Origin: Nitrospinota bacterium
GTDB lineage: Bacteria; Nitrospinota_A; UBA7883
Length of the DNA stretch: 64,000 bases
Direction: 5' to 3'
NCBI GenBank assembly: GCA_029881335.1
Contig: JAOUMU010000002.1
Location: forward strand, 1-64,000
Below are positions 11,897 to 64,000 of the stretch, piece by piece. A program made the position numbers and the translations under genes. How positions within the stretch are numbered: position 1 is the stretch's first letter; each line of letters opens with the position of its first letter. The notes below the pieces were generated by a model. The model was not told the origin of the DNA, did no database searches, and saw nothing but the letters and a program-made list of their open reading frames with translations.

Positions 11897-11954
11897 AAGG
11901 CGCCCGCCTTTTGAAATACCGCTTTTGCCTTTTGCGGCGCCTGTCATCGTCGCA

Positions 11955-14766: not shown

Positions 14767-14788
14767 CGCGCCAGGCGTGCCGCCGGAT

Positions 14789-15220: not shown

Positions 15221-15301
15221 ATTTCAACTCTCACAGGTCAGGTGATAACAAAAAGCGTCAGCGCAAGATTGTAACCGATCACAGATCGACTTGCCACGCC
15301 G

Positions 15302-17065: not shown

Positions 17066-17077
17066 CGAGCAGGTTTC

Positions 17078-18154: not shown

Positions 18155-18362
18155 TCCACACCCCTGGACAATCTAAAGAACCCACCGAGCCCTTTGCGAC
18201 CATAACCTTTTATATATTAACATGTTCCAAGCTGTGTTACAATAGGTAAAAAGGATTTTCAACTTATGTTTTGCCCTGGGATTAGCTCTTTTCGGCTTTT
18301 GTTCCCGCCACAACCGGTCTCTGAAATCTACGCGGAGAGAATTACGGATAAATAATGGATAT

Positions 18363-21106: not shown

Positions 21107-21108
21107 CC

Positions 21109-22578: not shown

Positions 22579-22582
22579 AATC

Positions 22583-23026: not shown

Positions 23027-23028
23027 CT

Positions 23029-24519
23029 ATGACGAGTCTGTATATAGCGCCCGGATTCATGGTTTCGGCGTTGATCGGGTTTTTTCTTGTAAGCCTGCTA
23101 CTGACATCCAGGGAGGGAGAAATGTCCTTGATAATCAGGCTATCCATGGGCTGGGGTGTCGGGACGGGCCTCTTGTCCATCCTCTTTTTTTTCTGGATGA
23201 CCATTTTCCAATCAAGCAGCCTTTTGCCCATGGTTGAGGCAGCGGTCACATTAGCCCTCGGTATATTTTATTTCAGATCCAGGGGCAAGTGGGCGCCCCT
23301 GCCGGGAGCCCATTCTCCAGCTACACAGGAAAGCAGGGCCATCACCCTCTTCGCCGGTGTGGTGTCGCTTTTTCTTTTGGCCTCCGCGGTTTATGTATTT
23401 CTGGTCAATTTGGCTATACTGCCCCATGGAAGATGGGACGCATGGATGATCTGGAGCCTGCGTGCAAAAGCCCTGAGCTATTTCCACGACGACTGGAGGA
23501 TGGCATTCGACCCTTCATATGGCTGGACCCACGCGGGATATCCGCTCTTGCTGCCAGCGTCCATGGCCAGAGTGGCGATCCACTACAACCTATCCGGTTG
23601 TCTTCCCATGAAAGTGTTCGAGCCCATTATTCCAGCCATTACTTCGTTTTTGTTCACCTTTTCGGTTCCGGCTCTGGTTTTCTCTTTTATTTTCCATTTG
23701 CGAGGGGCGGCCCTGGCCCTGGCCGCAAGCGCTATGCTGCTATCTGCGCAGATGATCTGCTTGCAGGGCTCCTCACTATATGCCGATCTGCCTTTGGCGT
23801 TTTACATGCTGGCGGCCGTGGGGCTGGCGGCAATCGCCATGGAGGGGAAAAAGGAGAATGGGAGGACATGGGCGCTGGCGGGTTTCTGCGCTGGCCTTGC
23901 CGCATGGACCAAAAACGAGGGGATGCTATTTGTGTTGGCGCTTATATGGGCCGTGGTGTGCGCATCTTGGCTCAAGGGTGGTTTTCGGCGAGCCTTGCCA
24001 AGGCTGGGGATGTTGGCCTTGGGATTGGCCCCGCCAGTGTTTACCATCATTGCCTTTAAAATTGCCATACCCGCCCATAATTACCTGATATCCGCCAACA
24101 CTGTGGAAATGATTTTGGCCAAGGCTCTTGATCCGGATCGATACCTCTTTATACTTTTCGGCATGGTATACGAAATATTTCACTATGGCGGAGTAATTTT
24201 TGCCGGATACACATTACCTGCGCCGGCCCTGGCCCTGATGTTTCTGGCCGCATGGGGAACCAGGGAAAGAGCCTTGCGTCAGGAGCCGGTCATGATGATC
24301 ATGCTCTCCCTGACGGCAATGCTGATCGGATACACTGCGGTTTACATCATCACGCCCATGGGGCTTCAATATCAGTTCACCACATCCGTGGCGCGGTTGA
24401 TCACCCAGGTGTGGCCGATTTTTGTTATGCTGGTGACACTAGCCGCCCGGCATGGGGATGGAGAGGGTAGCGCCGCGGCTTTTACCGAACTGGCCGACAA
24501 TGGAGGCGAAGATGGCTGA
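23029..24519 (+). CDS. polytopic membrane protein, GT-C-fold glycosyltransferase-like (module copy 2, B2)
   Basis: 496 aa, co-linear with B1 over its full length. Confidence 0.6.
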   Translation: MTSLYIAPGFMVSALIGFFLVSLLLTSREGEMSLIIRLSMGWGVGTGLLSILFFFWMTIFQSSSLLPMVEAAVTLALGIFYFRSRGKWAPLPGAHSPATQESRAITLFAGVVSLFLLASAVYVFLVNLAILPHGRWDAWMIWSLRAKALSYFHDDWRMAFDPSYGWTHAGYPLLLPASMARVAIHYNLSGCLPMKVFEPIIPAITSFLFTFSVPALVFSFIFHLRGAALALAASAMLLSAQMICLQGSSLYADLPLAFYMLAAVGLAAIAMEGKKENGRTWALAGFCAGLAAWTKNEGMLFVLALIWAVVCASWLKGGFRRALPRLGMLALGLAPPVFTIIAFKIAIPAHNYLISANTVEMILAKALDPDRYLFILFGMVYEIFHYGGVIFAGYTLPAPALALMFLAAWGTRERALRQEPVMMIMLSLTAMLIGYTAVYIITPMGLQYQFTTSVARLITQVWPIFVMLVTLAARHGDGEGSAAAFTELADNGGEDG

Positions 24520-25315
24520 TATATTTGAAAACAGGGTTCTGGGCAGAACCGGTTTTAATGTACACCCTCTGGGCGTGGGCGCAAGCTATGGAGTGGGAGC
24601 CCAGGGAATCCGGGAGGCTTTCGACCGGGGAGTGAACTACTTTTACTGGGCGTGGCGCCGCAGAGGCGGAATGGCCGATGGAATACGTGAAATCGCCAAA
24701 TCCGACCGGGAGAAGGTCTTCATTGTAGTCACCAGCCTGGCGCCCAGCGAGTTCATGATCAGACGAAGCGTTGAAGGAGCCCTGCGCGCACTGGGAACCG
24801 ACTACCTTGACGGACTTCAGTTCTATGTCCGCAAGGACCACCCTCCCTCCATGGGGTGGTGGATGGACGCGGCGCTGAAGCTGAAAGAAGAGGGAAAAAT
24901 CCGCCATATCTGCTCCACTGGCCACCACCGACCAAACTTCGCCAAATTCCACAGCGAGCCCTTCATGGATATCTTCCATGTGCGATACAACGCTGTTCAC
25001 CGTGGAGCGGAGACAGAAGTGTTCCCCCAACTGCCGGAAAAGGGAAGCCCGGCCCGGCCAGGTGTGGTGGCATTCACCGTCACCTGCTGGAGAAAGCTCA
25101 TCAACGCATCGCCGAACAGGATCGGCGGGCTGCCAGTCCCCACCGCCGGAGATTGCTACCGCTTCGCCATGACCAACCGGAACATAGACGTCACCATCTG
25201 CGGTCCCGCTGACGAGGAGCAGATGCGCCACGCCCTGGACGCAGTGGAGAAAGGGCCTATGACGGAAGATGAGATGGAATGGATGCGAAAGGTGGGCGCT
25301 CTTCTGTATGGATAA
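24512..25315 (+). CDS. aldo/keto reductase family oxidoreductase
   Basis: The start is placed at MADIFENRVLGRTGFNVHPLGVGASYG (ATG 24512, overlapping the B2 stop). This is the AKR N-terminal signature. Confidence 0.8.
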   Translation: MADIFENRVLGRTGFNVHPLGVGASYGVGAQGIREAFDRGVNYFYWAWRRRGGMADGIREIAKSDREKVFIVVTSLAPSEFMIRRSVEGALRALGTDYLDGLQFYVRKDHPPSMGWWMDAALKLKEEGKIRHICSTGHHRPNFAKFHSEPFMDIFHVRYNAVHRGAETEVFPQLPEKGSPARPGVVAFTVTCWRKLINASPNRIGGLPVPTAGDCYRFAMTNRNIDVTICGPADEEQMRHALDAVEKGPMTEDEMEWMRKVGALLYG

Positions 25316-25439
25316 CAGTGCGATGGCCGCCTTCAGCTTGTGCGAGCACATCTGGTCCATGGCCATCCATAGGGCCTTTAAGTGGATTATGACGGCCTGG
25401 TCGTAAACCGGCTTGGGGCCTGGCTTGCGGGCTGGAGCC

Positions 25440-25598
25440 CTCTTCCTTCCTGGCGTTGAGGATCCGGACGGCGTATTTGCGGTCGCAGCCGCAAACGGCG
25501 CAGAATTCGGAGAGGATGGCGCCTTTTTCCTTGCGTCCGGCTTTGCGGTATCGGACCCTGATCTTGGCAAGGCATTCTTTTCGCGAGTTTTTCCCCAT
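25440..25598 (-). pseudogene. remnant of an IS transposase N-terminal HTH domain (about 50 codons, no catalytic domain)
   Basis: MGKNSRKECLAKIRVRYRKAGRKEKGAILSEFCAVCGCDRKYAVRIL matches the conserved N-terminus (..R.RY..A.KKEK..ILDEF...TGYHRKYAIRLL) of a widespread transposase family. The remainder of the reading frame is antisense to the AKR gene. Confidence 0.5.
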
Positions 25599-25764
25599 AT
25601 TCCACGCTCCTTTCGGTTACATGAAACATGAGGCGCCGAATCATTTTCGCCCCTTACTTCGGTTACATTTAATTTGAGGCAATTCGGCAGATCGCTATTG
25701 CGTTTGGTTTTTGGAAGACAGAATGTATAATCTAAAGTCCGTTGCGCATAAAATTGCGAACGTG

Positions 25765-31943: not shown

Positions 31944-33821
31944 ATGCGCATGGAAAAAATGACAAAGCAGGACGGCAAAAGCCTCGATATGGTGAAGGGG
32001 AATCTAGAAGCTTTAAAAACCATCTTCCCGGAAGCTTTTACAGAGGATGGCGTTAACTTTGAAACACTGCGGCAGTTGCTTGGCGACGAGGTTGATGATG
32101 GCGAGGAGAAATACGGTCTCAACTGGCATGGCAAGAAAAAGGCCCGCCAGATCGCATTGACTCCTTCTCTGGGAACTCTGCGCCCATGCCCGGAAGAGAG
32201 TGTCGATTGGAACACCACACAGAACCTCTTTATCGAAGGGGACAATCTGGAAGTCCTGAAGCTCTTGCAGAAAAGCTACGCCAACAAGGTCAAGATGATC
32301 TATATCGACCCGCCCTATAACACAGGGAAGGAGTTCATCTATCCCGACAAGTTCCAGGACAATCTTGATACATATCTCAAATATACCGGTCAGAAAGATG
32401 ATGAGGGGTTCAAGGTCAGCTCCAACACGGAAAGCTCAGGCAGGTACCACACCAACTGGTTGAATATGATATATCCCCGCTTAAAGCTAGCGAGGAATCT
32501 TCTTCGGGATGATGGGGTCATTTTTATCTCAATAGATGATAATGAATCTACAAACCTAAGGATAATTTGTAATGATATTTTTGGAGAAGAAAATTTCATT
32601 GGGTCATTAATATGGAAACGCCGAGTGTCATCAGCAATGGCTGATAATAACGTTTCATCTGATCACGACTATGTAGTTTGCTATCAAAAAGGCAATCTAA
32701 AAGGGTTTGCTGGATTTGAAAAGGATTTCAAAAGATATTCCAACCCAGATAATGATAAAAGAGGTCCTTGGATTTCAGACAATTTGACTGTAGGTATGAA
32801 TTCGTCAATGCGCCCTAATCAAGCGTATGATTTAGTCGATCCAAAAACAGGTAGTACATACCCATATAATCCTAATCGTGTTTGGGCTTTTATTCCAGAA
32901 ACGATGAATAGAATGATTGCTGAAGGCAGGATTATTTTCCCGGACGATCCTGCAAAGCGTCCAATGCAAAAACGATTTCAGAATGAGCTTAATAATACAC
33001 ACAACCCTTTTTCTACTTTGATGCTGGATAGAGTAGGGTTAAATACAGAGGCTACCCGGACTATCCAAGATGTAATGGAAAGGAATGTTTTCGAGTATTC
33101 AAAGCCTGTTTCACTGCTTAAAACATTAGTTCCGCAAATATGTGTAAGCAAAAACGATATAGTTTTAGACTTTTTTGCAGGTTCGTGTGTAACTGCTCAT
33201 GCAGTTCTGGACTTAAACAAAGATGGAGATGATAATCTCAAATTTGTCATGGTTCAGCTTCCAGAACCATGTGATGAAAAGTCAGAAGCATTCAAAGGAG
33301 GATATAAAACCATAGCAGACATTGGTAAAGAACGTATCCGCCGGGTAGCCGCTAAAATCAAGGAGGAAACTCCGTTATATCAAGGCGATCTTGGATTCAA
33401 GGTCTTCAAGCTCGATAGCAGTAACATCCAAACATGGAATCCGGACAGGGATGATCTGGAACAGACGCTTCTGGATCATGCGGATCATCTTGTGGAAGGG
33501 CGGAGCGAAGAGGATGTTCTCTATGAATTGCTCCTGAAGCGTGGTGTTGATCTGACCGTACCCATTGAGCAAAAGGAAGTATCCGGCAAGGCTGTTTATA
33601 GCATCGGTTATGGAGTGTTGTTCACTTGCCTGGACACCTCCATCAGCCGGGATGATGTGGAAAGCCTCGCCCAGGGGATCGTCGCATGGCATGAAGAGCT
33701 GAAGCCGGAGAGCGACACACAAGTGGTCTTTCGGGACAGCGCGTTCGCCGATGACATTGCAAAAACCAACATGACAGCCATTCTTGAACAGAACGGCATC
33801 GCTCATGTGCGTAGTCTGTGA
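31944..33821 (+). CDS. mod: type III restriction-modification Mod subunit (beta-class N6-adenine DNA methyltransferase)
   Basis: 625 aa. Motif IV is IYIDPPYNTG. Motif I is FFAGSCVTAHAV, in the C-terminal part (beta-class circular permutation). The middle region is the presumptive variable target-recognition domain. Confidence 0.88.
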   Translation: MRMEKMTKQDGKSLDMVKGNLEALKTIFPEAFTEDGVNFETLRQLLGDEVDDGEEKYGLNWHGKKKARQIALTPSLGTLRPCPEESVDWNTTQNLFIEGDNLEVLKLLQKSYANKVKMIYIDPPYNTGKEFIYPDKFQDNLDTYLKYTGQKDDEGFKVSSNTESSGRYHTNWLNMIYPRLKLARNLLRDDGVIFISIDDNESTNLRIICNDIFGEENFIGSLIWKRRVSSAMADNNVSSDHDYVVCYQKGNLKGFAGFEKDFKRYSNPDNDKRGPWISDNLTVGMNSSMRPNQAYDLVDPKTGSTYPYNPNRVWAFIPETMNRMIAEGRIIFPDDPAKRPMQKRFQNELNNTHNPFSTLMLDRVGLNTEATRTIQDVMERNVFEYSKPVSLLKTLVPQICVSKNDIVLDFFAGSCVTAHAVLDLNKDGDDNLKFVMVQLPEPCDEKSEAFKGGYKTIADIGKERIRRVAAKIKEETPLYQGDLGFKVFKLDSSNIQTWNPDRDDLEQTLLDHADHLVEGRSEEDVLYELLLKRGVDLTVPIEQKEVSGKAVYSIGYGVLFTCLDTSISRDDVESLAQGIVAWHEELKPESDTQVVFRDSAFADDIAKTNMTAILEQNGIAHVRSL

Positions 33822-36800
33822 GCGGGGATTACTACATGAAATTACATTTTGAAGACAATCTGGAATATCAGCATGCGGCTATTGAGGCCGTTGCCGACCT
33901 GTTCAGAGGGCAGGATATTTGCCGGACGGAATTTACCGTTACTTACCAATCCGACGATGGCGCACAAGGCAGGCTTGGCATTGCAGAAAGTGAACTAGGT
34001 ATCGGGAACCGTCTTCAGCTCCTGGATGATGAAATACTGAAGAATTTGCACGATATCCAGCTCCGTAATGGATTGCCCCCGTCGGACTCCCTTGCCAATG
34101 GCGACTTCACCGTCGAGATGGAGACCGGAACCGGCAAGACCTATGTTTATCTGCGTACCATATTCGAGCTGAACAAGCGTTATGGCTTCACCAAATTCGT
34201 TATAGTCGTCCCTTCCGTGGCCATCAAGGAGGGAACCTACAAGACACTCCAGATCACGAGGGAGCATTTTGAAAACCTCTTTCCGATAGCCAAAGGCTAC
34301 GAGTATTTCCTCTACGACTCCGGCAAGCTTGGGCAGGTGCGCAATTTTGCAACCAGTCCTAATATCCAGATCATGGTTGTGACCGTCGGCGCGATCAATA
34401 AAAAGGACGTGAACAACCTCTATAAGGATAGTGAAAAAACCGGTGGCGAAAAACCGATTTATCTTGTCCGGGCAACCCATCCAATCATCATTGTTGACGA
34501 ACCGCAGAGTGTGGATGGTGGCATGAAAGGTCAGGGAAAAAAAGCTCTTGAAGCCATGAACCCGCTCTGCACATTACGTTATTCAGCAACCCATGTAGAT
34601 AAACATCACATGCTCTATCGCCTAGATGCCGTGGACGCATATGACCGTGAGCTGGTCAAACAGATCGAAGTGGCCGCTCTGGAAGTGGAAGGTGGCCATA
34701 ACAAGCCTTATGTGAAGCTGGTCTCAACGCACAACAAAAAAGGCTCGATCACGGCCAAGGTGGAGCTGGATGTTCAACGAGGAAAGAACATCCGCCGCGA
34801 CATAGTGACCGTGGAGGATGGAGACGATCTGGAGCAGGAAACTGGCCGTGCAATCTATGAGAATTTCCGAATAGGAACAATCACCTGTGGGAAGGGTAAT
34901 CAGTCCTTGGATATCAGCATGCCTGGCGGTGAATACACCATGCAGCCGGGTGAGGAGGTTGGCGGCGTTAATCCAGACGATCTAAAGAGGCTGATGATCC
35001 GCCGCACGATCAAGGAACACCTGGACAAGGAAATACGCTTTGCGGCGCAGAAGCGGGAAGTGAAAGTGCTTAGCCTGTTCTTCGTTGATAGCGTCGAATA
35101 TTACCGAAGCTACGATGAAGACGGGAATGCGGTGAAGGGAAAATACGCCCTGATGTTTGAAGAGGAATACCGCAAGCTGGCGAAACAGGCGGACTACCAC
35201 ACGCTGTTTGAGAAGATCGATCTCGATACCGATGCCAGTGATGTTCATAATGGTTATTTCTCAATCGACAAAAAGGGCGGATGGACAGAAACAGCGGAGA
35301 ACAATCAATCCAACAGAGACAGTGCTGAACGCGCCTATAACCTGATTATGAAGGATAAGGAAAAGCTTCTCAGCTTTGACTCTAAGCTCAAATTCATATT
35401 CTCCCATTCAGCCCTGAAAGAAGGGTGGGATAATCCGAACGTCTTTCAAATATGCGCTCTGCGTGACATGGGATCAGAACGCGAACGGCGGCAAACCCTT
35501 GGGCGCGGTTTGCGGTTATGCGTCAACCAAGAAGGCCTTCGGCTCCGTGGTTTTGACATTAATACGCTTACCGTAATCGCAACCGAGAGCTATGAGCAAT
35601 TTGCAGAGAACCTCCAGAAGGAAATAGAGGAGGATACCGGAATCCGGTTTGGCATCGTAGAAAAGCATCAGTTCGCCACACTGCCCGTGACTGCCGAAGA
35701 TGGTACGACGCAACCTCTGGGGGTGGAGAAATCAGAAAAAGTCTGGGATTTCCTGAAGGTGAATGACTATCTGGATAACCGAGGGAAAGTTCAGGACAGC
35801 TTGAAAACAGCGTTAAAAGAAAACACTCTGAAGATACCAGAGGAATTTAAGGAGCAGGAAGCAGGGATCAAAGGTATTCTGCGCAAACTTGCCGGGAAGC
35901 TGGATATCAAGAATGCGGATGAGCGTGTTACCGTCCGGACACGAGAGGCGGTACTGGAGAGTGAAGAGTTTAAGGCTCTATGGGATCGCATCAAGCACAA
36001 GACGACTTATCGTGTCGAGTTTGACAATGCGAAACTTATTGAGGATTGCGGAAAGGCCATTTTGGCCGGGCCACCAATTACCAAAACCCGAGCGCAATTC
36101 CGTATGGCGGATATTGCTATCGGGAAGGGTGGGGTGGAGGCTAAAGAAACAGCTACGTCGGGATTTACATCGATCAACGAAACCGATATTGAACTTCCGG
36201 ATTTACTGACGGATTTGCAGGACAAGACGAGCCTGAAGCGGCGGAGCCTGGTCGAGATTCTCACCGGTTGCCGTCGCTTGAACGACTTTATGAAGAACCC
36301 GCAGGAATTCATCGAACTAGCGACGGAGGCAATCAACAGGATAAAACGCCTTGCGCTTGTTGACGGCATTCGATATCGGCGTGTCGGTGACGATCACTAC
36401 TACGCCCAGGAGCTTTTTCAGCAGGAAGAGTTGACCGGATATCTCAAGAATACTCTGGAAACGCAAAAATCTGTTTATGAGCGTGTCGTTTACGATTCCG
36501 CCGGTGTTGAAAAACGCTTTGTCGAAGATTTGGAAGGGAACGAGGCGGTCAAAGTCTACGCCAAGCTCCCCGGCTGGTTCAAAGTGCCGACGCCGCTTGG
36601 CACATACAACCCTGACTGGGCGGTTCTGGTGGAAATCGACGGGCAGGAAAAGCTCTATTTCGTTGTCGAGACCAAGGGCAGCAATTGGTGGGACGATCTG
36701 CGCCACAAGGAAGGGGCCAAGATCAAATGCGGTGAAAAACACTTCGCCGTGCTGGCCGAAGGCGACAACCCGGCCAAGTACATTAAAGCCACCTGCGTCG

Positions 36801-36823
36801 ATGACATGATGAAGAATGGTTGA
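33818..36823 (+). CDS. res: type III restriction enzyme Res subunit (SF2 helicase plus C-terminal PD-(D/E)xK nuclease)
   Basis: 1001 aa. Walker A is METGTGKTY. DEAD-like motif II is IIVDEPQS. The C-terminal nuclease motif is YNPDW...VVETKGS. It overlaps mod by 4 bp. Confidence 0.88.
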   Translation: MSGDYYMKLHFEDNLEYQHAAIEAVADLFRGQDICRTEFTVTYQSDDGAQGRLGIAESELGIGNRLQLLDDEILKNLHDIQLRNGLPPSDSLANGDFTVEMETGTGKTYVYLRTIFELNKRYGFTKFVIVVPSVAIKEGTYKTLQITREHFENLFPIAKGYEYFLYDSGKLGQVRNFATSPNIQIMVVTVGAINKKDVNNLYKDSEKTGGEKPIYLVRATHPIIIVDEPQSVDGGMKGQGKKALEAMNPLCTLRYSATHVDKHHMLYRLDAVDAYDRELVKQIEVAALEVEGGHNKPYVKLVSTHNKKGSITAKVELDVQRGKNIRRDIVTVEDGDDLEQETGRAIYENFRIGTITCGKGNQSLDISMPGGEYTMQPGEEVGGVNPDDLKRLMIRRTIKEHLDKEIRFAAQKREVKVLSLFFVDSVEYYRSYDEDGNAVKGKYALMFEEEYRKLAKQADYHTLFEKIDLDTDASDVHNGYFSIDKKGGWTETAENNQSNRDSAERAYNLIMKDKEKLLSFDSKLKFIFSHSALKEGWDNPNVFQICALRDMGSERERRQTLGRGLRLCVNQEGLRLRGFDINTLTVIATESYEQFAENLQKEIEEDTGIRFGIVEKHQFATLPVTAEDGTTQPLGVEKSEKVWDFLKVNDYLDNRGKVQDSLKTALKENTLKIPEEFKEQEAGIKGILRKLAGKLDIKNADERVTVRTREAVLESEEFKALWDRIKHKTTYRVEFDNAKLIEDCGKAILAGPPITKTRAQFRMADIAIGKGGVEAKETATSGFTSINETDIELPDLLTDLQDKTSLKRRSLVEILTGCRRLNDFMKNPQEFIELATEAINRIKRLALVDGIRYRRVGDDHYYAQELFQQEELTGYLKNTLETQKSVYERVVYDSAGVEKRFVEDLEGNEAVKVYAKLPGWFKVPTPLGTYNPDWAVLVEIDGQEKLYFVVETKGSNWWDDLRHKEGAKIKCGEKHFAVLAEGDNPAKYIKATCVDDMMKNG

Positions 36824-36835
36824 GGGATATTAGAA

Positions 36836-37051
36836 ATGATGGAAGATAATAAGCCACTCAATGTGCAAGTCACCTCCAAAGAAACACCCACTCTTTTAAA
36901 TACTGACCGCCTTCGGTTGCACTTGAAAGAAGATGGATTGGCAGTGGCTTTACTTGACGTATGGCTTGATGATCCAAAACTCGATAATCAGGCGCGTATG
37001 CTTCAAATTATCGATAGTTATCATAAAAAAAAGCAAGTGAACGATGGCTAG
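36836..37051 (+). CDS. small hypothetical protein (71 aa), translationally coupled to the downstream ABC ATPase
   Basis: It starts 13 bp after the res stop. Its stop overlaps the ATPase start (ATGGCTAG). Confidence 0.5.
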   Translation: MMEDNKPLNVQVTSKETPTLLNTDRLRLHLKEDGLAVALLDVWLDDPKLDNQARMLQIIDSYHKKKQVNDG

Positions 37052-39566
37052 GCCCCAACTACGAAAAATTGAAATCCAGGGATTCCGTAGCTTTGGCTCT
37101 GGGAAACAATCATTTGAATTATCCCAAACTGTATCGGTCCTTTGGGGTGGGAATAGCCAAGGTAAAACGAGCCTTGCCGAAGCTATTGAATTCCTTTTTA
37201 GTGGCCAAATCGCCCGTCGCGAGTTGCTAGCCAGTACGAAGGACGAGTTTTCAGACTCACTCCGAAACGCTCATATCCCTAATACACTCCCTGTTTTTGT
37301 ATCCGCTGAAATAGTATGTGCTGACGGAAAAATAAGGCAATTAAAGCGCGTATTGAGCGAGGATTACAAGAAAGGAAACCATGGATGTATCAGCACACTG
37401 GAAATTGATGGACTTCTTTGCCTAGATGGCGATATTGAAACAAAATTGGGTATTAAGCTCTTCCAAGCACCCCTAAGCTCACCAGTGCTGGCCCAACACA
37501 CTCTTGGATATATATTTTCCGCTGGCCCAAATGATCGCTCCACCTATTTTAGGGCTGTGCTGGATACACAGGATTTAGAAGATTTCCGTGCGGCTATTGC
37601 CGCCCTATCAGAGTATATTCCCACACCAGTCCTAAAAGAAAATGGACTCTTGCATGCTATCGAGATCATACCAGAGCTGGGTAATACAAGCAGTGCCATA
37701 CGGAAATCCAAATCGCTGTCCAATTTAGAGAATAGTTTACTTGATGCAACAACTGCTCTCCTAACCAGCCTGGGGCTTAATCCACAAGATCAGCTTGCGG
37801 CACAGGCTATACAGATCGAGGAGGAGTTAATAAAAAGACGTGCAAAGTCATTTCCCCTCGATCTGTTTACCAAATCCTCCTTCGTGCCATGGGATAAGAA
37901 TTCAGGTAGCTTGGATCAACACATTAAAATATTTTACGAGGAACGCGCTAAAATTGACGTGGAAACCCGAAGACTTGTCGATTTATTCAAGATGGCTTTG
38001 CTATTGCCTGAAGCCAGTAATGAGCCTGAAGTAGCAAACTGTCCATTATGTGGCACGATTGACGCTTTAACGCCAAAGCGCATCCATGCGATACGCGAAC
38101 AGGTTAAAGATACAGAAATATACCAAGCGGCCGAGAAAGATATCTGTCAAACTCTACAAGCAATATCAACAAGGTTGTCTTCCTTGACTACAGCTCTGGA
38201 TTCCTCTTTGCCAAAATTTATTTTGGAACAACCACAGGCCAGACGTGCAAAAGGATTTACCGTAACCCGCATGCGTGACCTCGTGAATGATGCAGCCATG
38301 GTTACAAATTGGCTTGTTCCTACACGCCAAATTATCCGTGCTTCAGTAACCTTTAGAAAATCAATTATCGATGCACAAACAACTATCAATACTGTCATAG
38401 ACAGTCTAGATATATGGAACGATAAAACATCGATAACCCGTGCACTCGATAAAGTTAAATCAGCTCAAGATGTATATGCACAAAGCATCGATAATTATAC
38501 GCAAGTGGCAGAGTTGCTCGTCGGGCCACTGAAGAGTGCTGTTGACCAAAGCACGAACACTAAAGGCTGGGAAGAACTGGCCAAGCTGGCACACAGTCCT
38601 ACCGCCTTGTGGAATGCACTTGTAGAAACGGCCACGTATGAGCAGAAGAAGAAAGACCTTAACAGGGCACTCAAGGAAATTGACGCTGGCAATGGCAGGG
38701 TTGCGGATGATAAATTCGCCGATATGAGCACAGAAGTTAAAAAATGGTGGGATTATTTGCGACCTGATGAAACAACATTCTTTGATGCTGTGCAACGGCG
38801 TAGCACAAAAGCACGGCGAAATATTGACATTAAAGTCGGCCTTTCTGCTACTGAAGATCGTAGCAATCCGGCATTCCGAAATGCTGTTGCCGTATTTAGT
38901 CAATCGCAATTGCATTGCCTTGGTCTTTCGATGTTCCTAGCCCGAGCTGTGCAAGCTAAAACGGGATTCATTGTAATGGATGATCCTGTTTTGACTAGCG
39001 ATGACGATTTTAGACCTAATTTTGCTTCAACTGTCATCGAGGGTCTGTTGAATGAAGGGGTGCAATCCATAATTCTGACACAAGATCATTCGAGCTGGAA
39101 AGATATTGGACATCGTTGGGTACACCGCGATGTTGCCCAATTTCAAATTGTGTGCAACAACCCACTTTTGGGAACTGAAATCAGAAATCAGAATGATGGT
39201 CTTGCTACTATGATTGCAAGGGCACAGCCATTTGTTAAATCACACGACCTTGACCAACAAAAAACAGGTGCTACCCAAATACGATTATCTATCGAACGTT
39301 TCGGTAAAGAAATTCTTGTACGGAAAAGTCGCCTTGACGGTAACCAGATAGCTTCCATAACTGACTATGACGGAAAGAACTTCGGTGAATTCAGTAATTC
39401 TGTTTATGCCCTTCTCACAAAAGACCCTGCTCATCCAGGCAAGCTGAAGGCTGCGCATTCATACGTTACGCCAGGGGCACACGACGATACTCCTCCATCG
39501 TCAGGCAAGCTTTCAACGGCACTTGGAGACCTGAAGAAAATGAAGCGCGACTATCTAGACTCATAA
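37044..39566 (+). CDS. Rad50/SbcC-like ABC ATPase with a coiled-coil insertion and a CxxC zinc-hook motif; candidate RloC-like anticodon nuclease or other defence ATPase
   Basis: 840 aa. Walker A is GGNSQGKTS near the N-terminus. A long helical middle region contains CPLCG near residue 330. A signature-like QLHCLGLS and Walker B FIVMDDP are followed by an extra C-terminal domain of about 170 aa containing an R-x3-E...H pattern (IRLSIER ... DPAH). Confidence 0.6.
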   Translation: MARPQLRKIEIQGFRSFGSGKQSFELSQTVSVLWGGNSQGKTSLAEAIEFLFSGQIARRELLASTKDEFSDSLRNAHIPNTLPVFVSAEIVCADGKIRQLKRVLSEDYKKGNHGCISTLEIDGLLCLDGDIETKLGIKLFQAPLSSPVLAQHTLGYIFSAGPNDRSTYFRAVLDTQDLEDFRAAIAALSEYIPTPVLKENGLLHAIEIIPELGNTSSAIRKSKSLSNLENSLLDATTALLTSLGLNPQDQLAAQAIQIEEELIKRRAKSFPLDLFTKSSFVPWDKNSGSLDQHIKIFYEERAKIDVETRRLVDLFKMALLLPEASNEPEVANCPLCGTIDALTPKRIHAIREQVKDTEIYQAAEKDICQTLQAISTRLSSLTTALDSSLPKFILEQPQARRAKGFTVTRMRDLVNDAAMVTNWLVPTRQIIRASVTFRKSIIDAQTTINTVIDSLDIWNDKTSITRALDKVKSAQDVYAQSIDNYTQVAELLVGPLKSAVDQSTNTKGWEELAKLAHSPTALWNALVETATYEQKKKDLNRALKEIDAGNGRVADDKFADMSTEVKKWWDYLRPDETTFFDAVQRRSTKARRNIDIKVGLSATEDRSNPAFRNAVAVFSQSQLHCLGLSMFLARAVQAKTGFIVMDDPVLTSDDDFRPNFASTVIEGLLNEGVQSIILTQDHSSWKDIGHRWVHRDVAQFQIVCNNPLLGTEIRNQNDGLATMIARAQPFVKSHDLDQQKTGATQIRLSIERFGKEILVRKSRLDGNQIASITDYDGKNFGEFSNSVYALLTKDPAHPGKLKAAHSYVTPGAHDDTPPSSGKLSTALGDLKKMKRDYLDS

Positions 39567-40020
39567 AGACGGCAACCGCTAAGGGTAAGTCCCCTTTTCA
39601 AACATGATAAAATACATTATCACGTTTAAAAGAAAGAAACATTGTCAAGGTCTGAAGACTCAATAGCAATATCATGCAGGACAATGATATCCTTGATCCG
39701 GCCATGTTTTCTCCGCCCACCTGGCTTTGATCACACCTCTCCTAATGAAGTTTTTTTCCATTATGCTCAAAATATCGCATCATGGTTAACTGCGCCGCGC
39801 AAAGGTATAGCTAGAAATTGGAAATGCTTTTCTGTCGTCAATGTGAGAAAGCCATATGTAAATCTGGAATTTCCCATATACCTGTCATTGAATGGATTAC
39901 ATTGCCAGACGGATAATTACATGACCTATGATTCATATACAAAACATACAAAACCCTAATCCAAAATGAAATCGCCAGAGTTTTGTATGTTTTGTATACG
40001 TGTATACGCAAAGGCCTTTC

Positions 40021-40047
40021 CAAAAAGATAGGGGGCGCGAGCCCCCC
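40021..40047 (-). terminator. rho-independent terminator for the minus-strand primase operon
   Basis: A GC hairpin GGGGGC-GCGA-GCCCCC (40031..40047) is followed, on the minus strand, by TATCTTTTTG. It lies 10 bp downstream of the primase stop. Confidence 0.6.
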
Positions 40048-40057
40048 ATCGTTTGGC

Positions 40058-42652
<2,595 letters not shown>

Positions 42653-42756
42653 CTTTTCGTTCCATCAAGTAATGTTGATAATCAACGGCAACCGCGCCGC
42701 TTAAAGGATATAAAATCACACTCTCGATGATATAAAAAACTACCATTTCTATTTAT

Positions 42757-42873
42757 GGTAGGTTTGTTTTTGAGGTAGGTTTATTCGAGCGTGTATTGGA
42801 GCGGGTTTTATGTGATACCTATCTTGAGAATATTTCGATCCGAGGTAGGTTTTAGAGGGAAAAGGTAGGTATT
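42757..42873. promoter_or_regulatory. four direct iteron-like repeats GGTAGGT(T/A)T plus a palindrome TACCAT-N8-ATGGTA upstream of the alpA-primase operon
   Basis: Copies were read at 42757, 42774, 42844 and 42864. The palindrome at 42741..42760 overlaps the first copy. Confidence 0.55.
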
Positions 42874-43597
42874 AATTTGGCGATTCTTGCTTTCGCGGAC
42901 GGCCATGCGGCTTTTTACCGGTTTGCCGAATAGTTTTTTTGAGCGTAATATCTGAATATTCGTGAACTGGAAACTGCGTTCTATCTTTATATTTGCCCTC
43001 CCGATAAAGGCGGATTAATTCGTCATGAGTTGAGCTGGGATTTTCCTTCACAAGGCGATTGAGAACACCAAAGCGTTCCGCCGCCTTGGCTTGGCGTGTC
43101 TGCTTCCCTTTGACCGGCGATTCGATGCGCCACATGGATTCCTGCGCCTGGGCTTTGCGATTCTTCGGAAAAAGGAAGGCGGGCTGTTGGTGAAGGCGCT
43201 TTGCTAGGTCTTTCAATATATCGCGGGATACCTTTGTTTCATACAGAAACATATCCTGCCATATCATCCTGCCATCGATGACTGTTGGTTGTCCTGCTTG
43301 CTTTCCTATGTTCAAAAAGGCCTTCGCTTGCAGGTTCATATGATTACTATATGGTCTTGCATAGTTTTCAGATAATGGCGATTCAGCATATTCGCGACTA
43401 TCCAAAGCGCCAATAATGAGGGAGAGTATTTTTCCGACACATAATGGGATTTCGCTCTCTCTCAAGGGCGATACTTTTATTCCTCCAATATGTTGTGGCG
43501 GCGCAAAACCACACCAAAGAAAACATACCTCGTATAGAGTAAAAGATCCATCAACCTTCAACTGTTCATAGTCATTATCGGTCAGTGGCTTCAGCAT
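42872..43597 (-). CDS. hypothetical island protein
   Basis: 241-aa ORF between the integrase and the alpA operon. No recognisable motif was found. Confidence 0.5.
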   Translation of the reverse strand: MLKPLTDNDYEQLKVDGSFTLYEVCFLWCGFAPPQHIGGIKVSPLRESEIPLCVGKILSLIIGALDSREYAESPLSENYARPYSNHMNLQAKAFLNIGKQAGQPTVIDGRMIWQDMFLYETKVSRDILKDLAKRLHQQPAFLFPKNRKAQAQESMWRIESPVKGKQTRQAKAAERFGVLNRLVKENPSSTHDELIRLYREGKYKDRTQFPVHEYSDITLKKTIRQTGKKPHGRPRKQESPN

Positions 43598-43811
43598 CGC
43601 GCCCTCCTTCCGGCGCCCTGAAATAAGATATTGACCGGCGGGGCTGGTTCAGGAAAGCCAGCTTTTCGGGGATCAACCTAGCCGGTCAAAGTGTAGCAAA
43701 AATAGCATGAATAGCAATTGCAGGCCGCCAAAGCGAATTATCGCGCCAAGGCTAGCGGATGCCGTTAAGTCAATCTATTGGCAGTAATGGCAGTGGCTTT
43801 ACCTTAGGTAT

Positions 43812-45074
43812 TTAATCAATCCCGCCCGCTTTCTTGAATGGCAGAACGTCCGCGCCACCTTTTCGCCCGGCCCGTGTAAGGATTGCGTCCGTTATCCTTT
43901 GCATGGGCGCCCTTAGCCTTTCCGCGTCGTGAACTATATAGCCCTCCGTCACGTCTCCGGCCTGCTTGTGGTTCAATAATCGCTTCAAAGCGTATCCGCT
44001 TATGTCCAGGCTTTCCGCCACCGTGGCGAATGTCCGCCGCAAGTCATGGACAGTAAACTTCACCCCAGATATGGCTGTTATCTTCTTCATTTGGCGCCGG
44101 GGCTCCATAAGGTGGCCGGTTTTGCTTCTATCTGGGAATACATATTCACTTGATAGGTTCGCACCACGGCGCCGGTCCAGCATTTCATAAACCATATCGC
44201 TCATGGGCAAGGTTAGCGGCTGGCTGTTCTTTGTGTCCGTTATGGTGAAGGTCTTTTCTGCCATATCAACATCGGCCCATTTCAAATGGGCCGCCTCTTG
44301 CCGTCTTAATCCCGTAAAGAGAATCAATTCCAGATAATCCGGGACAACTTCCGTTGTCTTTGTGCTTTCCATCAATTCGCTTCTTAGCGCGTCCAGAGCG
44401 TCAAGAAACACGCCAAGGCTTGAATCCTTAATGTAGGTCCGTTTCCTGTCCACTTTATACCAAGCTCGTGTTTCGGAAAGACGCTTGACGGGATTTACCT
44501 GCAATAGCGGCTGGCCATCGTTTGTTTCGTATTTTGCCATCGCGAAATTGAAAACCGCCCGCAATACCCTCATGGCCTGATTCCCCTGGGCGGGGCCGTG
44601 ATCCTTGGCGATATCAGCATGGCGTTGTTGAATCATGTTCTTAGTAATTCCCCTTACCTGCTTCCCCAGCCAATCGCCAAACCGCTTTTCCACTTGGTAC
44701 CTATAATCAAGAACTGTCCGGGGCTTTAATTGTTTCCGCGCCATCATATATTCATCAAACGCTTCCCTTAACGTCACCTGGGCCGCTCTGGCCGCTTGCT
44801 TTTCCGCCATGGGGTCCACGCCCTGGGTCATTTCCGAAAGCCGTTGTAATGCCATTGAGCGGGCTTGGTCCGGAGTTAATTTCCCATGCTTCCCTAAGGT
44901 AACCCTTACTGAGCGGCCTGATACGCGTGATTGAACAACATACACCTTCCCGGAAGGAACAACCTTTACACCGAAGCCTTGCAAAGCCTTATCCCAATAA
45001 AAGACCGATTTCCCCGGCTCTGTAACGGGGGGAAGACCGTCAACCGCCGATTTTGTGATCTTCATTTTCGCCAT
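43812..45074 (-). CDS. int: tyrosine-type site-specific integrase (P4-like, with an N-terminal DUF4102 arm-binding domain)
   Basis: 420 aa. The N-terminus is GLPPVTEPGKSVFYWDKALQGFGVKVVPSGKVYVVQSRV (Arm-DNA-bind type). The C-terminal catalytic region carries the R...HDLRRTF...Y pattern. Confidence 0.9.
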   Translation of the reverse strand: MAKMKITKSAVDGLPPVTEPGKSVFYWDKALQGFGVKVVPSGKVYVVQSRVSGRSVRVTLGKHGKLTPDQARSMALQRLSEMTQGVDPMAEKQAARAAQVTLREAFDEYMMARKQLKPRTVLDYRYQVEKRFGDWLGKQVRGITKNMIQQRHADIAKDHGPAQGNQAMRVLRAVFNFAMAKYETNDGQPLLQVNPVKRLSETRAWYKVDRKRTYIKDSSLGVFLDALDALRSELMESTKTTEVVPDYLELILFTGLRRQEAAHLKWADVDMAEKTFTITDTKNSQPLTLPMSDMVYEMLDRRRGANLSSEYVFPDRSKTGHLMEPRRQMKKITAISGVKFTVHDLRRTFATVAESLDISGYALKRLLNHKQAGDVTEGYIVHDAERLRAPMQRITDAILTRAGRKGGADVLPFKKAGGID

Positions 45075-45276
45075 TTCCGCCTTGCCTCCGATAATCGGTT
45101 TCTGCTTACTAGAAATCCTAGTAAGCGCCTAGTAAGCGCCGCGTGGAAATATGTAGGGCTGGCTGTACAACCCTGTATAACGGAACATCTTCAAATAATG
45201 GCGTAAATAAAGGCGATTGTCAACTATGTGGATATTTATATCACTGGGTAAAACCCAGTAAACCGGGCCATATTCA

Positions 45277-60019: not shown

Positions 60020-60145
60020 ACGAGACGTGGTTTCATAAGTTTCCCCTTTTCTTCTATAGCCATGGACACGGAGAAATCCGGAATGGCGTCCAGACTTGGG
60101 ATTTTTGGCTGCGATCTCCGCCGGTTTTTAAGTTACACTAGGCTC

Positions 60146-61015
60146 ATGAGACCTATCGCATTGACTATCGCGGGGTCCGACTCTGGTGGAGGCGCTGGAA
60201 TCCAGGCGGATCTGGCCACGTTTTTCGCTCACAAGGTATACGGGACCTCTGTCATCACCGCGCTGACGGCGCAGAACACCATGTCCGTGGCCGGTGTCCA
60301 TGCCGTCCCAGCGGAATTCGTGGCCCTGCAGATGCGGACCGTGCTGCAGGACATCCCCGTAAACGCGGCAAAAACCGGTATGCTGTTCAACGCCCTAATT
60401 GTGAGGGCCGTGGCTGAAGAGATCAGCGCCACCGGGCTGACTACGCTGGTTGTGGACCCGGTGATGATCGCGAAGAGCGGCGATTCTCTGTTGCTGGATG
60501 ACGCCGTGGAGACACTGATCGCAGAGCTTTTGCCCCTGGCTTATTGCGTCACCCCGAACATCCCGGAGGCTGAAAGGCTGGCCGGCGTGACCATCCATGG
60601 TGTGGACGACATGAAGAGAGCGGCGGAGAAGATCCTTGCTCTGGGGCCCAGAAACGTGGTGGTGAAGGGGGGCCACATGAGGGGGGAGAAGACGCTGGTG
60701 GATGTGGCGCTGGTGAATGGAATGTTCCACCAGCTAGCGCGGGAGCGCATCGATACACAGAACACTCATGGCACCGGGTGCACATTCTCCGCGGCTATCA
60801 CCGCCGGGATGGCCGGGGGGTTGGATATCTGGTCCGCGGTAGAGAGCGCGTGGGTGTACATCGGCAAGGCGATAGAGAATGCATGGTCCCTGAACGAGGG
60901 GCTCACCCCTGGAAAGGGGCTCACCCCCGGAAAGGGGCTCACCCCCGGAAAGGGGCTAGCTCCTTCGGGCGACAGCCCTGTAAAAAGCCACAGCCCGGTG
61001 GAGCGATTTTTCTAG
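60146..61015 (+). CDS. thiD: hydroxymethylpyrimidine/phosphomethylpyrimidine kinase with a C-terminal (GLTPGK)n repeat extension
   Basis: The start is at [23 protein letters not shown]. The C-terminal extension is encoded by an 18-bp tandem repeat. Confidence 0.88.
60898..60960 (+). repeat. 18-bp tandem repeat GGGCTCACCCC(T/C)GGAAAG, about 3.4 copies, within the thiD 3' end
   Basis: Read directly; it encodes GLTPGK three times. Confidence 0.85.
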
Positions 61016-61037: not shown

Positions 61038-61970
61038 TTATTCCACTTTGTCCGGGGTGGACTGTTCCTTTTCCATTTGCATCATGGGGCATTTATCAGT
61101 CCCCTCTTTCATATGCATCATTTGGTGATCGCTTCCCTTGTGCATGGCGGCGCACTTTTCCGGAGTCATGGCGCATTTGCCATCTTTCATCATGGGGCAT
61201 TCATCCTCGCCAGCGTGCATTCCAGGCTTCCCCTTCATCATGATGCAATCGGCCATGCCTTCATGTTCCGCTTTCATGGCTTCATGTTGCGCACGCATAG
61301 CGGGATATTGCGACTGCATGGCTTCACTCTTGCCATGCTCCTCACCAATTGATGGGTGGTTCAGAGGGAAGATTCCTTCCCGTCCGCCAAATTTGGTGGC
61401 CTTGCCCGCCAGTTTTGGAAACCTCTCCTGAGCGTAAGTGGCGTGGCAGTTCATGCACCCCTCACTCAGCCGATAGTAGAGATAGGGGACAACGTTCCAT
61501 TGTTCGGCTTTGGCGGCGCTGGCCAGCATCCCGGAGAAGTCGTGGAAGTCGGTATCCATTTTCACGAATCCCGGCGGCAAAGAGTGGTGTAGCTCCTTCA
61601 TTTGCTCCGGCTTCAGTTTTTTCGCCAGGATAAAGCTCTCTTTCATACGAGTGGCTACATCGGCCACCTTCACCGAATCACCGGAGGCGATGGCGGGAAC
61701 CAGTTCCGTCATCCCCTGCTGAATAAACCGCATCTCCTCGGCCAGCAACGTTTTCAATTCGGGGGAAAGGTTCAGCTTCCCCTCCGGCGCCATGGATTGG
61801 CTCTCGCGGGAATGGCCTTCCGCTGATTGACTCTCGTCGTGGGTTGCCGATGCCGATGGGGCATGATGGGCCATTGCCCCACCGCCGTAGGCATTGTGGT
61901 GGCACCCGGCCATGGAAATGATGGCCGCAGCCAGAGGAGCGAATATGGAGTATCTTGTATTTTTATTCAT
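61038..61970 (-). CDS. lipoprotein class-II cytochrome c (cytochrome c'-like, CxxCH near the C-terminus of the helical domain) with His-rich N-terminal and Met/Cys/His-rich C-terminal repeat regions
   Basis: It has a signal peptide with lipobox ISMAGC and the heme motif CMNCHATY. The tail carries five C(P/A/I)MM-type repeats (CIMMKGK, CPMMKDGK, CAMTPEK, CAAMHKGS, CPMMQMEK). Confidence 0.7.
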   Translation of the reverse strand: MNKNTRYSIFAPLAAAIISMAGCHHNAYGGGAMAHHAPSASATHDESQSAEGHSRESQSMAPEGKLNLSPELKTLLAEEMRFIQQGMTELVPAIASGDSVKVADVATRMKESFILAKKLKPEQMKELHHSLPPGFVKMDTDFHDFSGMLASAAKAEQWNVVPYLYYRLSEGCMNCHATYAQERFPKLAGKATKFGGREGIFPLNHPSIGEEHGKSEAMQSQYPAMRAQHEAMKAEHEGMADCIMMKGKPGMHAGEDECPMMKDGKCAMTPEKCAAMHKGSDHQMMHMKEGTDKCPMMQMEKEQSTPDKVE

Positions 61971-62070
61971 AGGAGTTTTCCTTATCTATATCGACTACTT
62001 GACACAAGGAGAACCTCAACTTTAGCACACCGGAAGACCCATCGCGAGAAAAACCAGGGCCGGATTAAGT

Positions 62071-64000
62071 TCACTCAGCCACCGCAGGCAGCTCAACATA
62101 AAACACGCTTCCATCACCCGGCTTGCTTTCCGCGCGGATGACGCCTCCATGGGCGCTGATGATCTCGTGGCAATAGGCCAATCCCAGGCCTGTTCCCACT
62201 TCTCCTGCGGTGCCTGGCGTTGTTAAGCGCATGTCGATCCGAAAAATATCCTGAAGCAGCCTGTAGTCTATTCCCGTTCCAGTATCCCGCACCGCCACGA
62301 CCCCTTGCTGGATATCGGGCCGGAAGAACGTCACCGTGTCCCCCTTGTGGCAGAACTTTATGGCGTTGGAAAGGAGGTTTGCCAGCACTTCGCCGAAGAG
62401 GTCCGGGTCCACCGAAATTACGAAATCATGTGGCATGTCATTGACAATGGTCACTCCCTTGTCCATGGCCAGAAATTCCAGATCCAGAATATGGGAATTT
62501 GCAAGATGCCACATATCCGTGGGCTTTCTGGAGACACCTATCTTACCGGAGGAGAGCCTGCTGATATTCAATATGTTGTCTACCAGACGTAGCAACCTTT
62601 CCGAAGAAGCAAGGACACGGGTGACGATCTCCTCGTTTATGGCGATAGTGGGGGTGTCCGGATTTTCCAGCTTTAATAACTTTATCATGTTGATCAAGGA
62701 GCCTATGGGAGCGCGCAGGTCGTGGGAAACCATGCCGACGAATTTGTCCTTTAGCTCGGTGGCCTGTTCCGCCTGTTCCTTGGCTTGTGTCAGCTCCACG
62801 GTGCGTTTTTCCACCATCGCCTCCAGGTCGTGCTTCGATTCCGTGAGTACTATTCGTACTTCCTCCTCGGCAAGATCCTTTGCCACCATTTCGATTCTAA
62901 TTTTGTCCGCCAGTGCAAAAGAGAGAAGCAAAGCGTTGAGCGCCATACCCACCTCCATCGAATGGATTGATACAAGGTCCGCTTGGCCATGCCCCAACAG
63001 AGCCAGATTTGTAAACATAATCCCAATAACGGATGACACCCACGCCAGGATGAAATACCTGGCCTCGCGAAACTTATAGAAATATGCCGCCACCCCGATG
63101 AACGTCATGATCCATGGGAAGATTGTCGCGATGACAATGGAGGTGTGGTTGGCTGAATGGTGAGCTCCATTTAGAACACCATACGCCGCCACTGTCAGAA
63201 GAAGCGCTTGAAATCCCGAAAGAAACCGGTTTATCCGTGGCATCCGCTGTGGAGTGTTGAAAAAGACTTTTGTAAAAAAGACTCCCAGAAGCATTGACAA
63301 GTACGCCGCCAGGAATAGCGCCCGGTCCTGAAGCCATGGAGATCCGGGCCATAAATATTGATATGAGTATCCTGTATGGGCGGAAATCATGAAAGCAAGG
63401 CTAGCGATATAAATTACAATATATGCATGGCCTTTATTCCCTAGCAACAGAAACATAAAGATGTCGTACAGAAACACGGCCAGAAGAAGGCCGAACCACA
63501 AGCCGTAGTAGAGGTTCAATCCTTGAATATGGGCGCTTAGGGCGTGCTGGCCCCAGAGCATGAAAGGCGCCTGGAGCGGCTCATCGCCGGTTATCCGGAC
63601 AAACAGCAGGGTCTCTTCGTATGCATTGTTCGATAGAGGGAAAAGAAAGTGCGGGCTGACGATGGGCCGCCGGGCAAACGGATAATTGGCGCCAGCTTTC
63701 ATGCTGGTCCTTTTCCCCTTATCTTGGATCAAATAAACATCAATCGAATCTATCCAGCATGAAAATTGCTGAAGGACCAGATGGTCATGTTTATTGGTAC
63801 TGTTTCTGATGATAGCGCGAAACCAGAAAGCGCTCCTGGAAATCCCGAAATTCGGGATTTCCTGCCCTAATGGAGCGAACCGGTCCCTGTATGGGGGGGC
63901 GATCACATCTTCGAAAGTCAGCTCTCCGGTTTTGTCCTCCAGAACATCCATATGGGGACCCAGCAGATAGCTGGAAGTATTGGCGTCGAGTTCCAGCGCA
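62071..64000 (-). CDS. 7TMR-DISM-type sensor histidine kinase, N-terminally truncated by the window end
   Basis: A 7TMR-DISM extracellular region and seven TM helices are followed by HisKA (MVSHDLRAP) and HATPase_c (DTGTGI, GLGLAYC). The reading frame stays open to position 64000. Confidence 0.85.
   Translation of the reverse strand, partial: ALELDANTSSYLLGPHMDVLEDKTGELTFEDVIAPPYRDRFAPLGQEIPNFGISRSAFWFRAIIRNSTNKHDHLVLQQFSCWIDSIDVYLIQDKGKRTSMKAGANYPFARRPIVSPHFLFPLSNNAYEETLLFVRITGDEPLQAPFMLWGQHALSAHIQGLNLYYGLWFGLLLAVFLYDIFMFLLLGNKGHAYIVIYIASLAFMISAHTGYSYQYLWPGSPWLQDRALFLAAYLSMLLGVFFTKVFFNTPQRMPRINRFLSGFQALLLTVAAYGVLNGAHHSANHTSIVIATIFPWIMTFIGVAAYFYKFREARYFILAWVSSVIGIMFTNLALLGHGQADLVSIHSMEVGMALNALLLSFALADKIRIEMVAKDLAEEEVRIVLTESKHDLEAMVEKRTVELTQAKEQAEQATELKDKFVGMVSHDLRAPIGSLINMIKLLKLENPDTPTIAINEEIVTRVLASSERLLRLVDNILNISRLSSGKIGVSRKPTDMWHLANSHILDLEFLAMDKGVTIVNDMPHDFVISVDPDLFGEVLANLLSNAIKFCHKGDTVTFFRPDIQQGVVAVRDTGTGIDYRLLQDIFRIDMRLTTPGTAGEVGTGLGLAYCHEIISAHGGVIRAESKPGDGSVFYVELPAVAE

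Follow-up and report, generated by a model that had tools for sequence, protein, structure and literature searches.

The single 310-codon open reading frame located at positions 61038..61970 on the minus strand of the window (the whole 64,000-nucleotide stretch of DNA analysed) encodes a protein in which a four-helix monohaem cytochrome c is joined to a conserved and uncharacterised Cys/Met/His-rich tail, a combination of domains that is new. The 310-residue product, which is identical to the 'hypothetical protein' OEZ32_00725 of a Nitrospinota metagenome-assembled genome, consists of four successive parts: a signal peptide with a lipobox, a His-rich tether, the four-helix monohaem core, and the Cys/Met/His-rich tail (Table 1). 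The function that we tentatively propose for it, at a probability of roughly 0.45, is that of an electron-transfer cytochrome anchored by lipid in the periplasm, with flexible ends by which soft metal ions, most likely Cu(I), are captured. An earlier note on this DNA had described the same reading frame as a cytochrome c'-type lipoprotein with a CMNCH haem motif, a His-rich N-terminus and a repetitive metal-binding-like tail, and translation bore out that description in substance, the haem motif included.

Table 1. Features of the cytochrome gene, of the adjoining kinase gene and of the three other secreted proteins built from the same repeat unit. Residue numbers are those of the 310-residue product; positions are those of the window, except in the last three rows, where they are those of the locus named.
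Feature	Position	Strand	Basis or remark
7TMR-DISM histidine kinase, neighbour	62071..64000	-	PF07696, PF07695, HisKA, HATPase_c
Spacer, kinase stop to cytochrome start, 100 bp	61971..62070	.	Promoter/terminator scan
Signal peptide and lipobox, residues 1-23, MNKNTRYSIFAPLAAAIISMAG followed by C23	61902..61970	-	Translation
His-rich flexible tether, residues 24-65	61776..61901	-	6 His; Ala/Ser/Gly-rich
Four-helix-bundle monohaem cytochrome c core, residues 66-190	61401..61775	-	AF2, Foldseek, profile, phmmer
Met80, probable sixth haem ligand (by analogy)	61731..61733	-	Invariant, with Glu79, in 137 members
Haem-attachment motif C172-M-N-C175-H176	61443..61457	-	Sequence; invariant in 137-member alignment
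Linker and Met/His-rich helix, residues 191-241, ...AMRAQHEAMKAEHEGM	61248..61400	-	AF2 pLDDT
Cys/Met cluster region, residues 242-297	61080..61247	-	CIMMK, CPMMKDGKC, CAMTPEKC, CAAMHK, CPMMQ
Polar/acidic C-terminal end, residues 298-310, and stop codon	61038..61079	-	Translation; pLDDT ~50
Secreted protein, L033	3464..4069		CPMMKDGK..., then CC-rich repeats
Secreted protein, L034	2704..3432		Helical domain, then repeats of CPKMKKGECPMMKKGTC
Secreted protein, L035	7..315		Repeats of DCPMMKDGKMACMKDGKC

The N-terminal segment conforms to the lipobox pattern, in which [LVI..][ASTVI][GAS]-C is preceded by a basic n-region and a hydrophobic h-region; both regions are present, and S-M-A-G-C follows them. 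The lipoprotein assignment made previously is further upheld by the canonical L-A-G-C of the closest orthologue, P0002, the signal of which ends in L-L-A-G-C; the orthologues P0003 and P0004 possess ordinary signal-peptidase-I-type ends with no lipobox. Immediately beyond the putatively lipidated residue the translation reads ...SMAGC23-HHNAYGGGAMAHHAPSASATH, the His-rich start quoted in the earlier note, and the tether as a whole contains 15.8% His and was assigned AF2 pLDDT values of 50-56.

Searches conducted with the whole protein against Pfam and NCBIfam returned no family at E ≤ 1, and a plain sequence search of the PDB yielded class II cytochromes at E-values of about 0.4-1 at best. An exhaustive phmmer search for relatives of the core recovered 393 representative clusters (at 50% identity) with E ≤ 0.001, nearly all of them proteins of 160-180 residues that aligned to query residues 60-190 only; all ten of the clusters whose names were checked proved to be unnamed or labelled 'hypothetical protein'. 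In a family alignment (A3) assembled from 137 of the 393 clusters, E79, M80, C172, C175 and H176 were invariant, while L131-P132, F135, D139 and F142-H143, which together form an LPxxFxxxDxxFH motif, were nearly so. When supplied with this alignment, AF2 predicted a four-helix bundle with pLDDT values of 89-98 over residues 70-190 and helices at 70-95, 99-130, 133-154 and 161-179, the CMNCH motif lying within the last of these, as in class II cytochromes, which carry a single CxxCH near the C-terminal end of helix 4.

Structural and profile comparisons placed the core in the same company. The best Foldseek matches were to cytochromes c', to cytochrome b562 and to the Kusta0087/Kusta0088 pair from Kuenenia stuttgartiensis, with TM-scores of 0.56-0.73 on target length, and the family profile run against the PDB matched Kusta0087/88 (6r6m) at 3e-6 and the C-terminal halves of many cytochromes c' at 4e-5 to 1e-3. 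With PF01322, the Cytochrom_C_2 model that the earlier note had put forward as a check, 131 of the 137 relatives matched at E ≤ 0.1 (best E-value 1.9e-8), sampled typical members scored 14-26.1 bits against a gathering cut-off of 26.5, and no match at E ≤ 1 was returned for the query, P0002, P0003 or P0004. The core agrees with class II cytochromes c in fold and haem site but misses the Pfam threshold, and is thus a divergent sister group of them. It belongs to a large, unannotated, secreted family of proteins of about 170 residues that is remotely related to those cytochromes and most members of which fall short of the PF01322 cut-off. The class II assignment made previously is thereby retained, on the combined evidence of AF2, Foldseek, the PDB profile and the sub-threshold PF01322 scores; the label 'cytochrome c'-type' was too specific, given the missing PF01322 match of the query and the invariant Met80.

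In true cytochromes c' the distal residue is variable and the haem is five-coordinate and high-spin, with no sixth ligand provided by the protein. The simpler reading of a Met that is invariant in helix 1 is as a sixth ligand, a role in which Met is known from cytochromes b562 and c556, and by this analogy Met80 suggests His/Met ligation rather than a true cytochrome c'. With the one c-type haem attached at Cys172 and Cys175, His176 would be the proximal ligand and Met80 the most likely sixth, and such a centre would be expected to function as a low-spin electron carrier and not as a gas-binding cytochrome c'. An hhalign comparison of the family with cytochrome b562, aimed at placing Met80 onto Met7, returned a probability of 1.5% in a register a few residues off.

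The query shares with the class II cytochromes c (PF01322: c' and c556) and cytochrome b562 its secretion, its four-helix bundle and the lone CxxCH where helix 4 ends towards the C-terminus. Its family differs from them in the invariant E-M pair, the near-invariant LPxxFxxxDxxFH motif and the His-rich termini, and the class II cytochromes encountered in the PDB searches, all of 106-135 residues, are tail-less, whereas the query carries a lipid anchor and a 115-residue tail. The best PDB profile match, the Kusta0087/Kusta0088 pair (6r6m/n/o; target-normalised TM-score 0.69-0.73), likewise consists of small soluble proteins of 110 residues from an anammox organism, without tail or lipid anchor, and the sequence alignment is limited to the last 50 residues.

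Potential metal ligands are not confined to the tail-bearing members of the family. At least two His occur among the last eight residues of 75 of the 137 aligned members (55%), the core itself containing 4.4% His; typical ends are GHKH, HSH, HGH and HHH (of H-x-H type), about 20 residues past the haem motif. Moreover, in 35 of the 137 the 30 residues that precede the core include at least three His. From these counts, ligand-rich termini are a family-wide property, and the Nitrospinota tail has the appearance of an enlarged C-terminal ligand patch of the kind that occurs throughout the family. Other members bear different additions, namely a C-terminal Gmad2 Ig-like domain (P0029), a C-terminal SnoaL-like domain (P0120) and an N-terminal membrane domain (P0139), from which the core may be viewed as a modular redox unit.

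The tail is longer than had been reported: 134 residues, rather than about 90, follow the CMNCH motif, the Cys-bearing portion being residues 242-297. Met, His, Lys and Glu abound in residues 191-310, and the tail is composed of 15% Met and 30% charged residues. Its last 115 residues include 30 Cys, Met and His, or 26%, as against 6.1% in the 40 other long open reading frames of the window (binomial 7e-12), and the richest other stretch of 115 residues in the 64 kb reaches 15.7%. Each of the five tail Cys (242, 258, 266, 273 and 294) is followed by Met, in the units CIMMK, CPMMK, CAMTPEK, CAAMHK and CPMMQ, so that the five Cys-led repeats described earlier are indeed present, although just three of them fit the C-x-M-M-[KQ] pattern then given. 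In all five cases a Met stands at +1 to +3 (P 0.007 against shuffles of the tail), and CPM occurs twice against an expected 0.05. AF2 assigned pLDDT values of 41-59 to the linker (residues 191-220) and to most tail blocks, and moderate values of 69-78 to the Met/His helix at residues 223-236 and to CPMMKDGKCAMTPEKCAAM.

A Cys/Met tail of this kind was found in four of the clusters only: those of the query, P0002 (56% identity), P0003 (45%) and P0004 (43%). Three of the four are taxon-labelled, all as Nitrospinota, and as their cores also make the four mutual nearest relatives, a single origin of the tail is probable. Conserved without exception across them are C258-P-M, G264, C266, C273 and C294-P-M-M; in these four clusters, which amount to few related sequences, a Met stands no more than three residues beyond 22 of the 26 tail Cys, a number that averaged 9.7 in shuffled sequence and was attained in none of 20,000 shuffles, and CPM occurs 11 times against an expected 0.29. 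These sequence statistics mark the tail as a product of selection rather than noise; absence or lack of conservation in orthologues, which the earlier note had named as evidence against it, was not what the comparison revealed, the tail being real, compositionally biased and retained.

The numbers of tail Cys in the four proteins are 5, 8, 7 and 6, and two of them, with the odd counts of 5 and 7, cannot have a tail domain in which every Cys is paired in a disulfide. Tail length and repeat number vary among the orthologues, and the P0002 gene contains an 82-nt direct repeat (L001 5404..5485 and 5521..5602; 88% identity) spaced at 117 nt, attributable to a recent duplication of a Cys/Met/His unit of 39 residues, while short, diverged DNA repeats surround the CPMM codons of the query gene. 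As read from such repeats, the tail evolves through unit duplication.

When the four tails alone were searched against Pfam and NCBIfam at E ≤ 10, only chance-level matches were returned, among them DUF6799 (13 bits) and a CrpP-related family (17 bits), both below cut-off and treated as chance; no MXKDX/MrpX model matched at that threshold, and no HMM of either collection linked the tail or the protein to CusF, CopB, SilE or MrpX. The likeness to CusF and to CopB tails drawn in the earlier note is consequently one of composition. Equivalent shuffles applied to the HxxM/MxxH motifs typical of SilE/PcoE revealed no excess, with 10 in the four tails against 8.4 expected (P 0.33) and no enrichment in the query tail alone, with 3 against 2.4 (P 0.43).

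A scan of metagenome contigs with the conserved peptides of the tail returned P0002-like genes together with three unrelated secreted proteins (L033, L034 and L035 in Table 1), each containing repeats with the consensus C-P-M-M-K-(D/K)-G-x-C and each with uninformative gene neighbours. Recurrence in three unrelated secreted proteins built from it indicates that C-P-M-M-K-x-G-x-C is a recurrent, uncharacterised Cys/Met/Lys module, and speaks for the unit having a function of its own.

With respect to known systems, the tail resembles periplasmic metal-binding and Met-rich segments in composition only, as far as sequence comparison can tell. SilE/PcoE, CusF and CopG bind Cu(I) or Ag(I) in the periplasm by means of Met and His, with the addition of Cys in CopG; they differ from the query in having other folds, no haem and no HMM match. 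The closest functional precedent is PcuC (PCuAC), a periplasmic copper chaperone in which, as in the query, a folded periplasmic domain is followed by a disordered Met/His-rich extension, the proposed task of which is to retain a second copper ion or pass it on (PMC12860648). However, the folded domain of PcuC is a cupredoxin-like copper site and not a haem bundle, its C-terminal extension is short and Cys-free, and there is no sequence relationship between the two proteins. No class II-type cytochrome with such a Cys/Met tail was found described in the literature searched.

As proposed, the protein would face the periplasm as a lipoprotein anchored through a lipidated Cys23, and its class II-type bundle would be flanked on either side by flexible segments rich in metal ligands, the His-rich tether at the N-terminus and the Met/His helix plus five Cys-Met units at the C-terminus. 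The composition and conserved motifs of the tail suggest that it probably binds copper-like soft metals, for which thiolate, thioether and imidazole groups would serve as ligands and of which Cu(I) is the prime candidate. The protein would thereby buffer or chaperone metal in the periplasm beside a one-electron redox centre, with the haem either exchanging electrons with bound copper or keeping the thiols reduced.

The gene neighbourhood provides little by which to decide between this and other roles. As stated previously, the cytochrome gene follows a 7TMR-DISM histidine kinase gene on the same strand, at a distance of 100 bp; the kinase, which comprises 7TMR-DISMED2, 7TMR-DISM_7TM, HisKA and HATPase_c domains, is called as 666 residues on its own contig, from which its first 24 or so codons lie beyond the end of the window. 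The spacer contains neither a consensus promoter nor a terminator on the minus strand, and no response regulator adjoins the kinase. The functional link with the kinase that the earlier note implied is not borne out by conservation: the kinase is adjacent in this organism only (L002 and L003), and is absent upstream of the orthologues in all three of their lineages (P0002; P0003/P0152; P0004/P0153), as represented by the loci L001, L004/L038 and L005/L039, so that the conserved adjacency by which a two-component partnership might be recognised is lacking.

The sole neighbour common to three of the four tail-bearing lineages, these three being Nitrospinota, is a convergent ThiD gene downstream. 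Within 8-10 kb of any tail-bearing gene in the four lineages (or to the contig end on shorter contigs), no copper- or metal-homeostasis, msrP/msrQ (yedYZ) or chlorite-related gene was detected, and no ECF sigma gene was found near the four. A weak 'Penicillinase_R' (CopY/BlaI-type) match to a 127-residue gene upstream of P0003 was not reproduced for the corresponding gene of L038, and was dropped. A genome scan conducted with 10 family sequences provided 24 further family loci, from Burkholderiales, Methylococcaceae, Nitrospirota, Sedimenticola and others, none of which lay beside a metal-resistance operon or metal gene; DsbB was a neighbour in three Sedimenticola-like loci. A conserved operon was rejected, because no neighbour was common beyond close relatives among these 24 loci and the four tail-bearing ones.

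Some other features of the window were also recorded. The ThiD-like reading frame (60062..61015, plus strand) includes an 18-bp tandem repeat at 60897..60957 on the same strand (3.4 copies, 97% match) that encodes GLTPGK three times just before the C-terminus of this hydroxymethylpyrimidine-kinase-like protein; as the orthologous ThiD proteins of L004 and L006 end in ...GHGPVE(H/R)FF and lack it, the repeat seems to have expanded in frame recently. The region of about 33800..45100 is probably a mobile or defence island, with genes for a ResIII/restriction-endonuclease-like protein (33818..36823), an SMC_N/AAA protein (37044..39566), a DUF3987 protein (40058..42148) and a phage-type integrase (43812..45074). 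An ENA assembly of the same sample divides the window between separate contigs, k141_2246282 corresponding to ~11.4-25.7 kb (~11390..25690) and k141_101832 ending at ~33.66 kb, which identifies the window as coming from a different and longer assembly.

Other functions for the protein can be set against the proposed metal capture. The main one, unlikely though credible, is that the tail forms a sacrificial oxidant sink tethered to the cytochrome, of the MrpX/BcrX type, in which exposed Met residues, together with Cys, would scavenge hypochlorite, peroxide and other oxidants and be re-reduced by methionine sulfoxide reductase. Service as an oxidant sink is documented for Met-rich peptides of the periplasm. 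The tail is predicted by AF2 to be largely disordered and exposed, and the nitrite oxidisers among the Nitrospinota can make chlorite from chlorate, which may be counted in its favour. Furthermore, its proportions of Met and charged residues resemble those of the Met-rich periplasmic peptide MrpX (20% Met and 44% charged; PMC4436054), its M-M-K-D-G unit resembles the M-x-K-D-x (MXKDX) repeat of BcrX/MrpX (PMC8315932), and the PcuC study likewise proposes a protective role for Met in tails of this kind (PMC12860648). MrpX and BcrX, which share with the tail a periplasmic location, an abundance of Met and charge, and M-x-K-D-like units, are nevertheless free, small, Cys-less peptides encoded alongside msrPQ and an ECF sigma gene, and neither those genes nor a match to the relevant models accompanies the tail-bearing cytochromes. 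The four invariant Cys, the fixed C-P-M spacing and the family-wide enrichment in His would, moreover, be unneeded by a pure sink.

It is likewise rather unlikely that the tail is a fast-evolving, low-complexity spacer or docking segment without ligand chemistry, possibly stapled in part by disulfides, that positions the cytochrome towards a redox partner or the outer membrane, the protein itself then being a lineage-specific electron carrier. The different additions borne by other members of the family, the variable length and repeat number of the tail with its internal duplication in P0002, the low pLDDT values and the uninformative gene context would all accord with such a segment, whereas a Cys, Met and His content far outside that of the rest of the window, the retention of Cys positions and C-P-M-M motifs across proteins of 43-56% identity, and the recurrence of the C-P-M-M-K-x-G-x-C unit in unrelated secreted proteins would not. 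A highly improbable alternative is a redox or gas sensor operating with the adjacent kinase, in which a Cys, Met or His of the tail would alternately ligate and leave the haem iron, or else take up a metal signal, and the resultant state would be relayed to the periplasmic domain of the kinase. The close tandem arrangement with no intervening terminator is consistent with this, as is the deposition, for the nearest solved relative Kusta0087/88, of mutants in which Cys is altered (C32M/C101M and C32G); against it stand the missing kinase in every orthologous lineage, the want of an adjacent response regulator, and the invariant Met80, which would already supply the sixth ligand.

Capture of soft metal ions by the flexible ends of an electron-transfer cytochrome is accordingly the reading we retain for the tail-bearing protein. 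Its extension to the whole family is quite improbable: on that view all members would be haem-coupled periplasmic metal handlers, in which the haem oxidises or reduces a metal (e.g., Cu(I)/Cu(II)) held at the terminal patches, and the Nitrospinota proteins would represent a high-capacity form built from the reusable C-P-M-M-K-x-G-x-C module.

Should the tail prove to be an oxidant sink or a spacer, it would amount to a modest, lineage-specific decoration. The analysis brings to light two uncharacterised items, the widespread cytochrome family with its Glu-Met pair and H-x-H ends, and the C-P-M-M-K-x-G-x-C module. The Nitrospinota include marine nitrite oxidisers with respiratory chains rich in both haem and copper. 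If the tail does bind copper or another soft metal, the protein would be, as far as searched, the first instance in which a segment that captures metal is joined to a class II cytochrome c, and, in the case of copper, it would place a one-electron centre within reach of Cu(I)/Cu(II) in the Nitrospinota periplasm.
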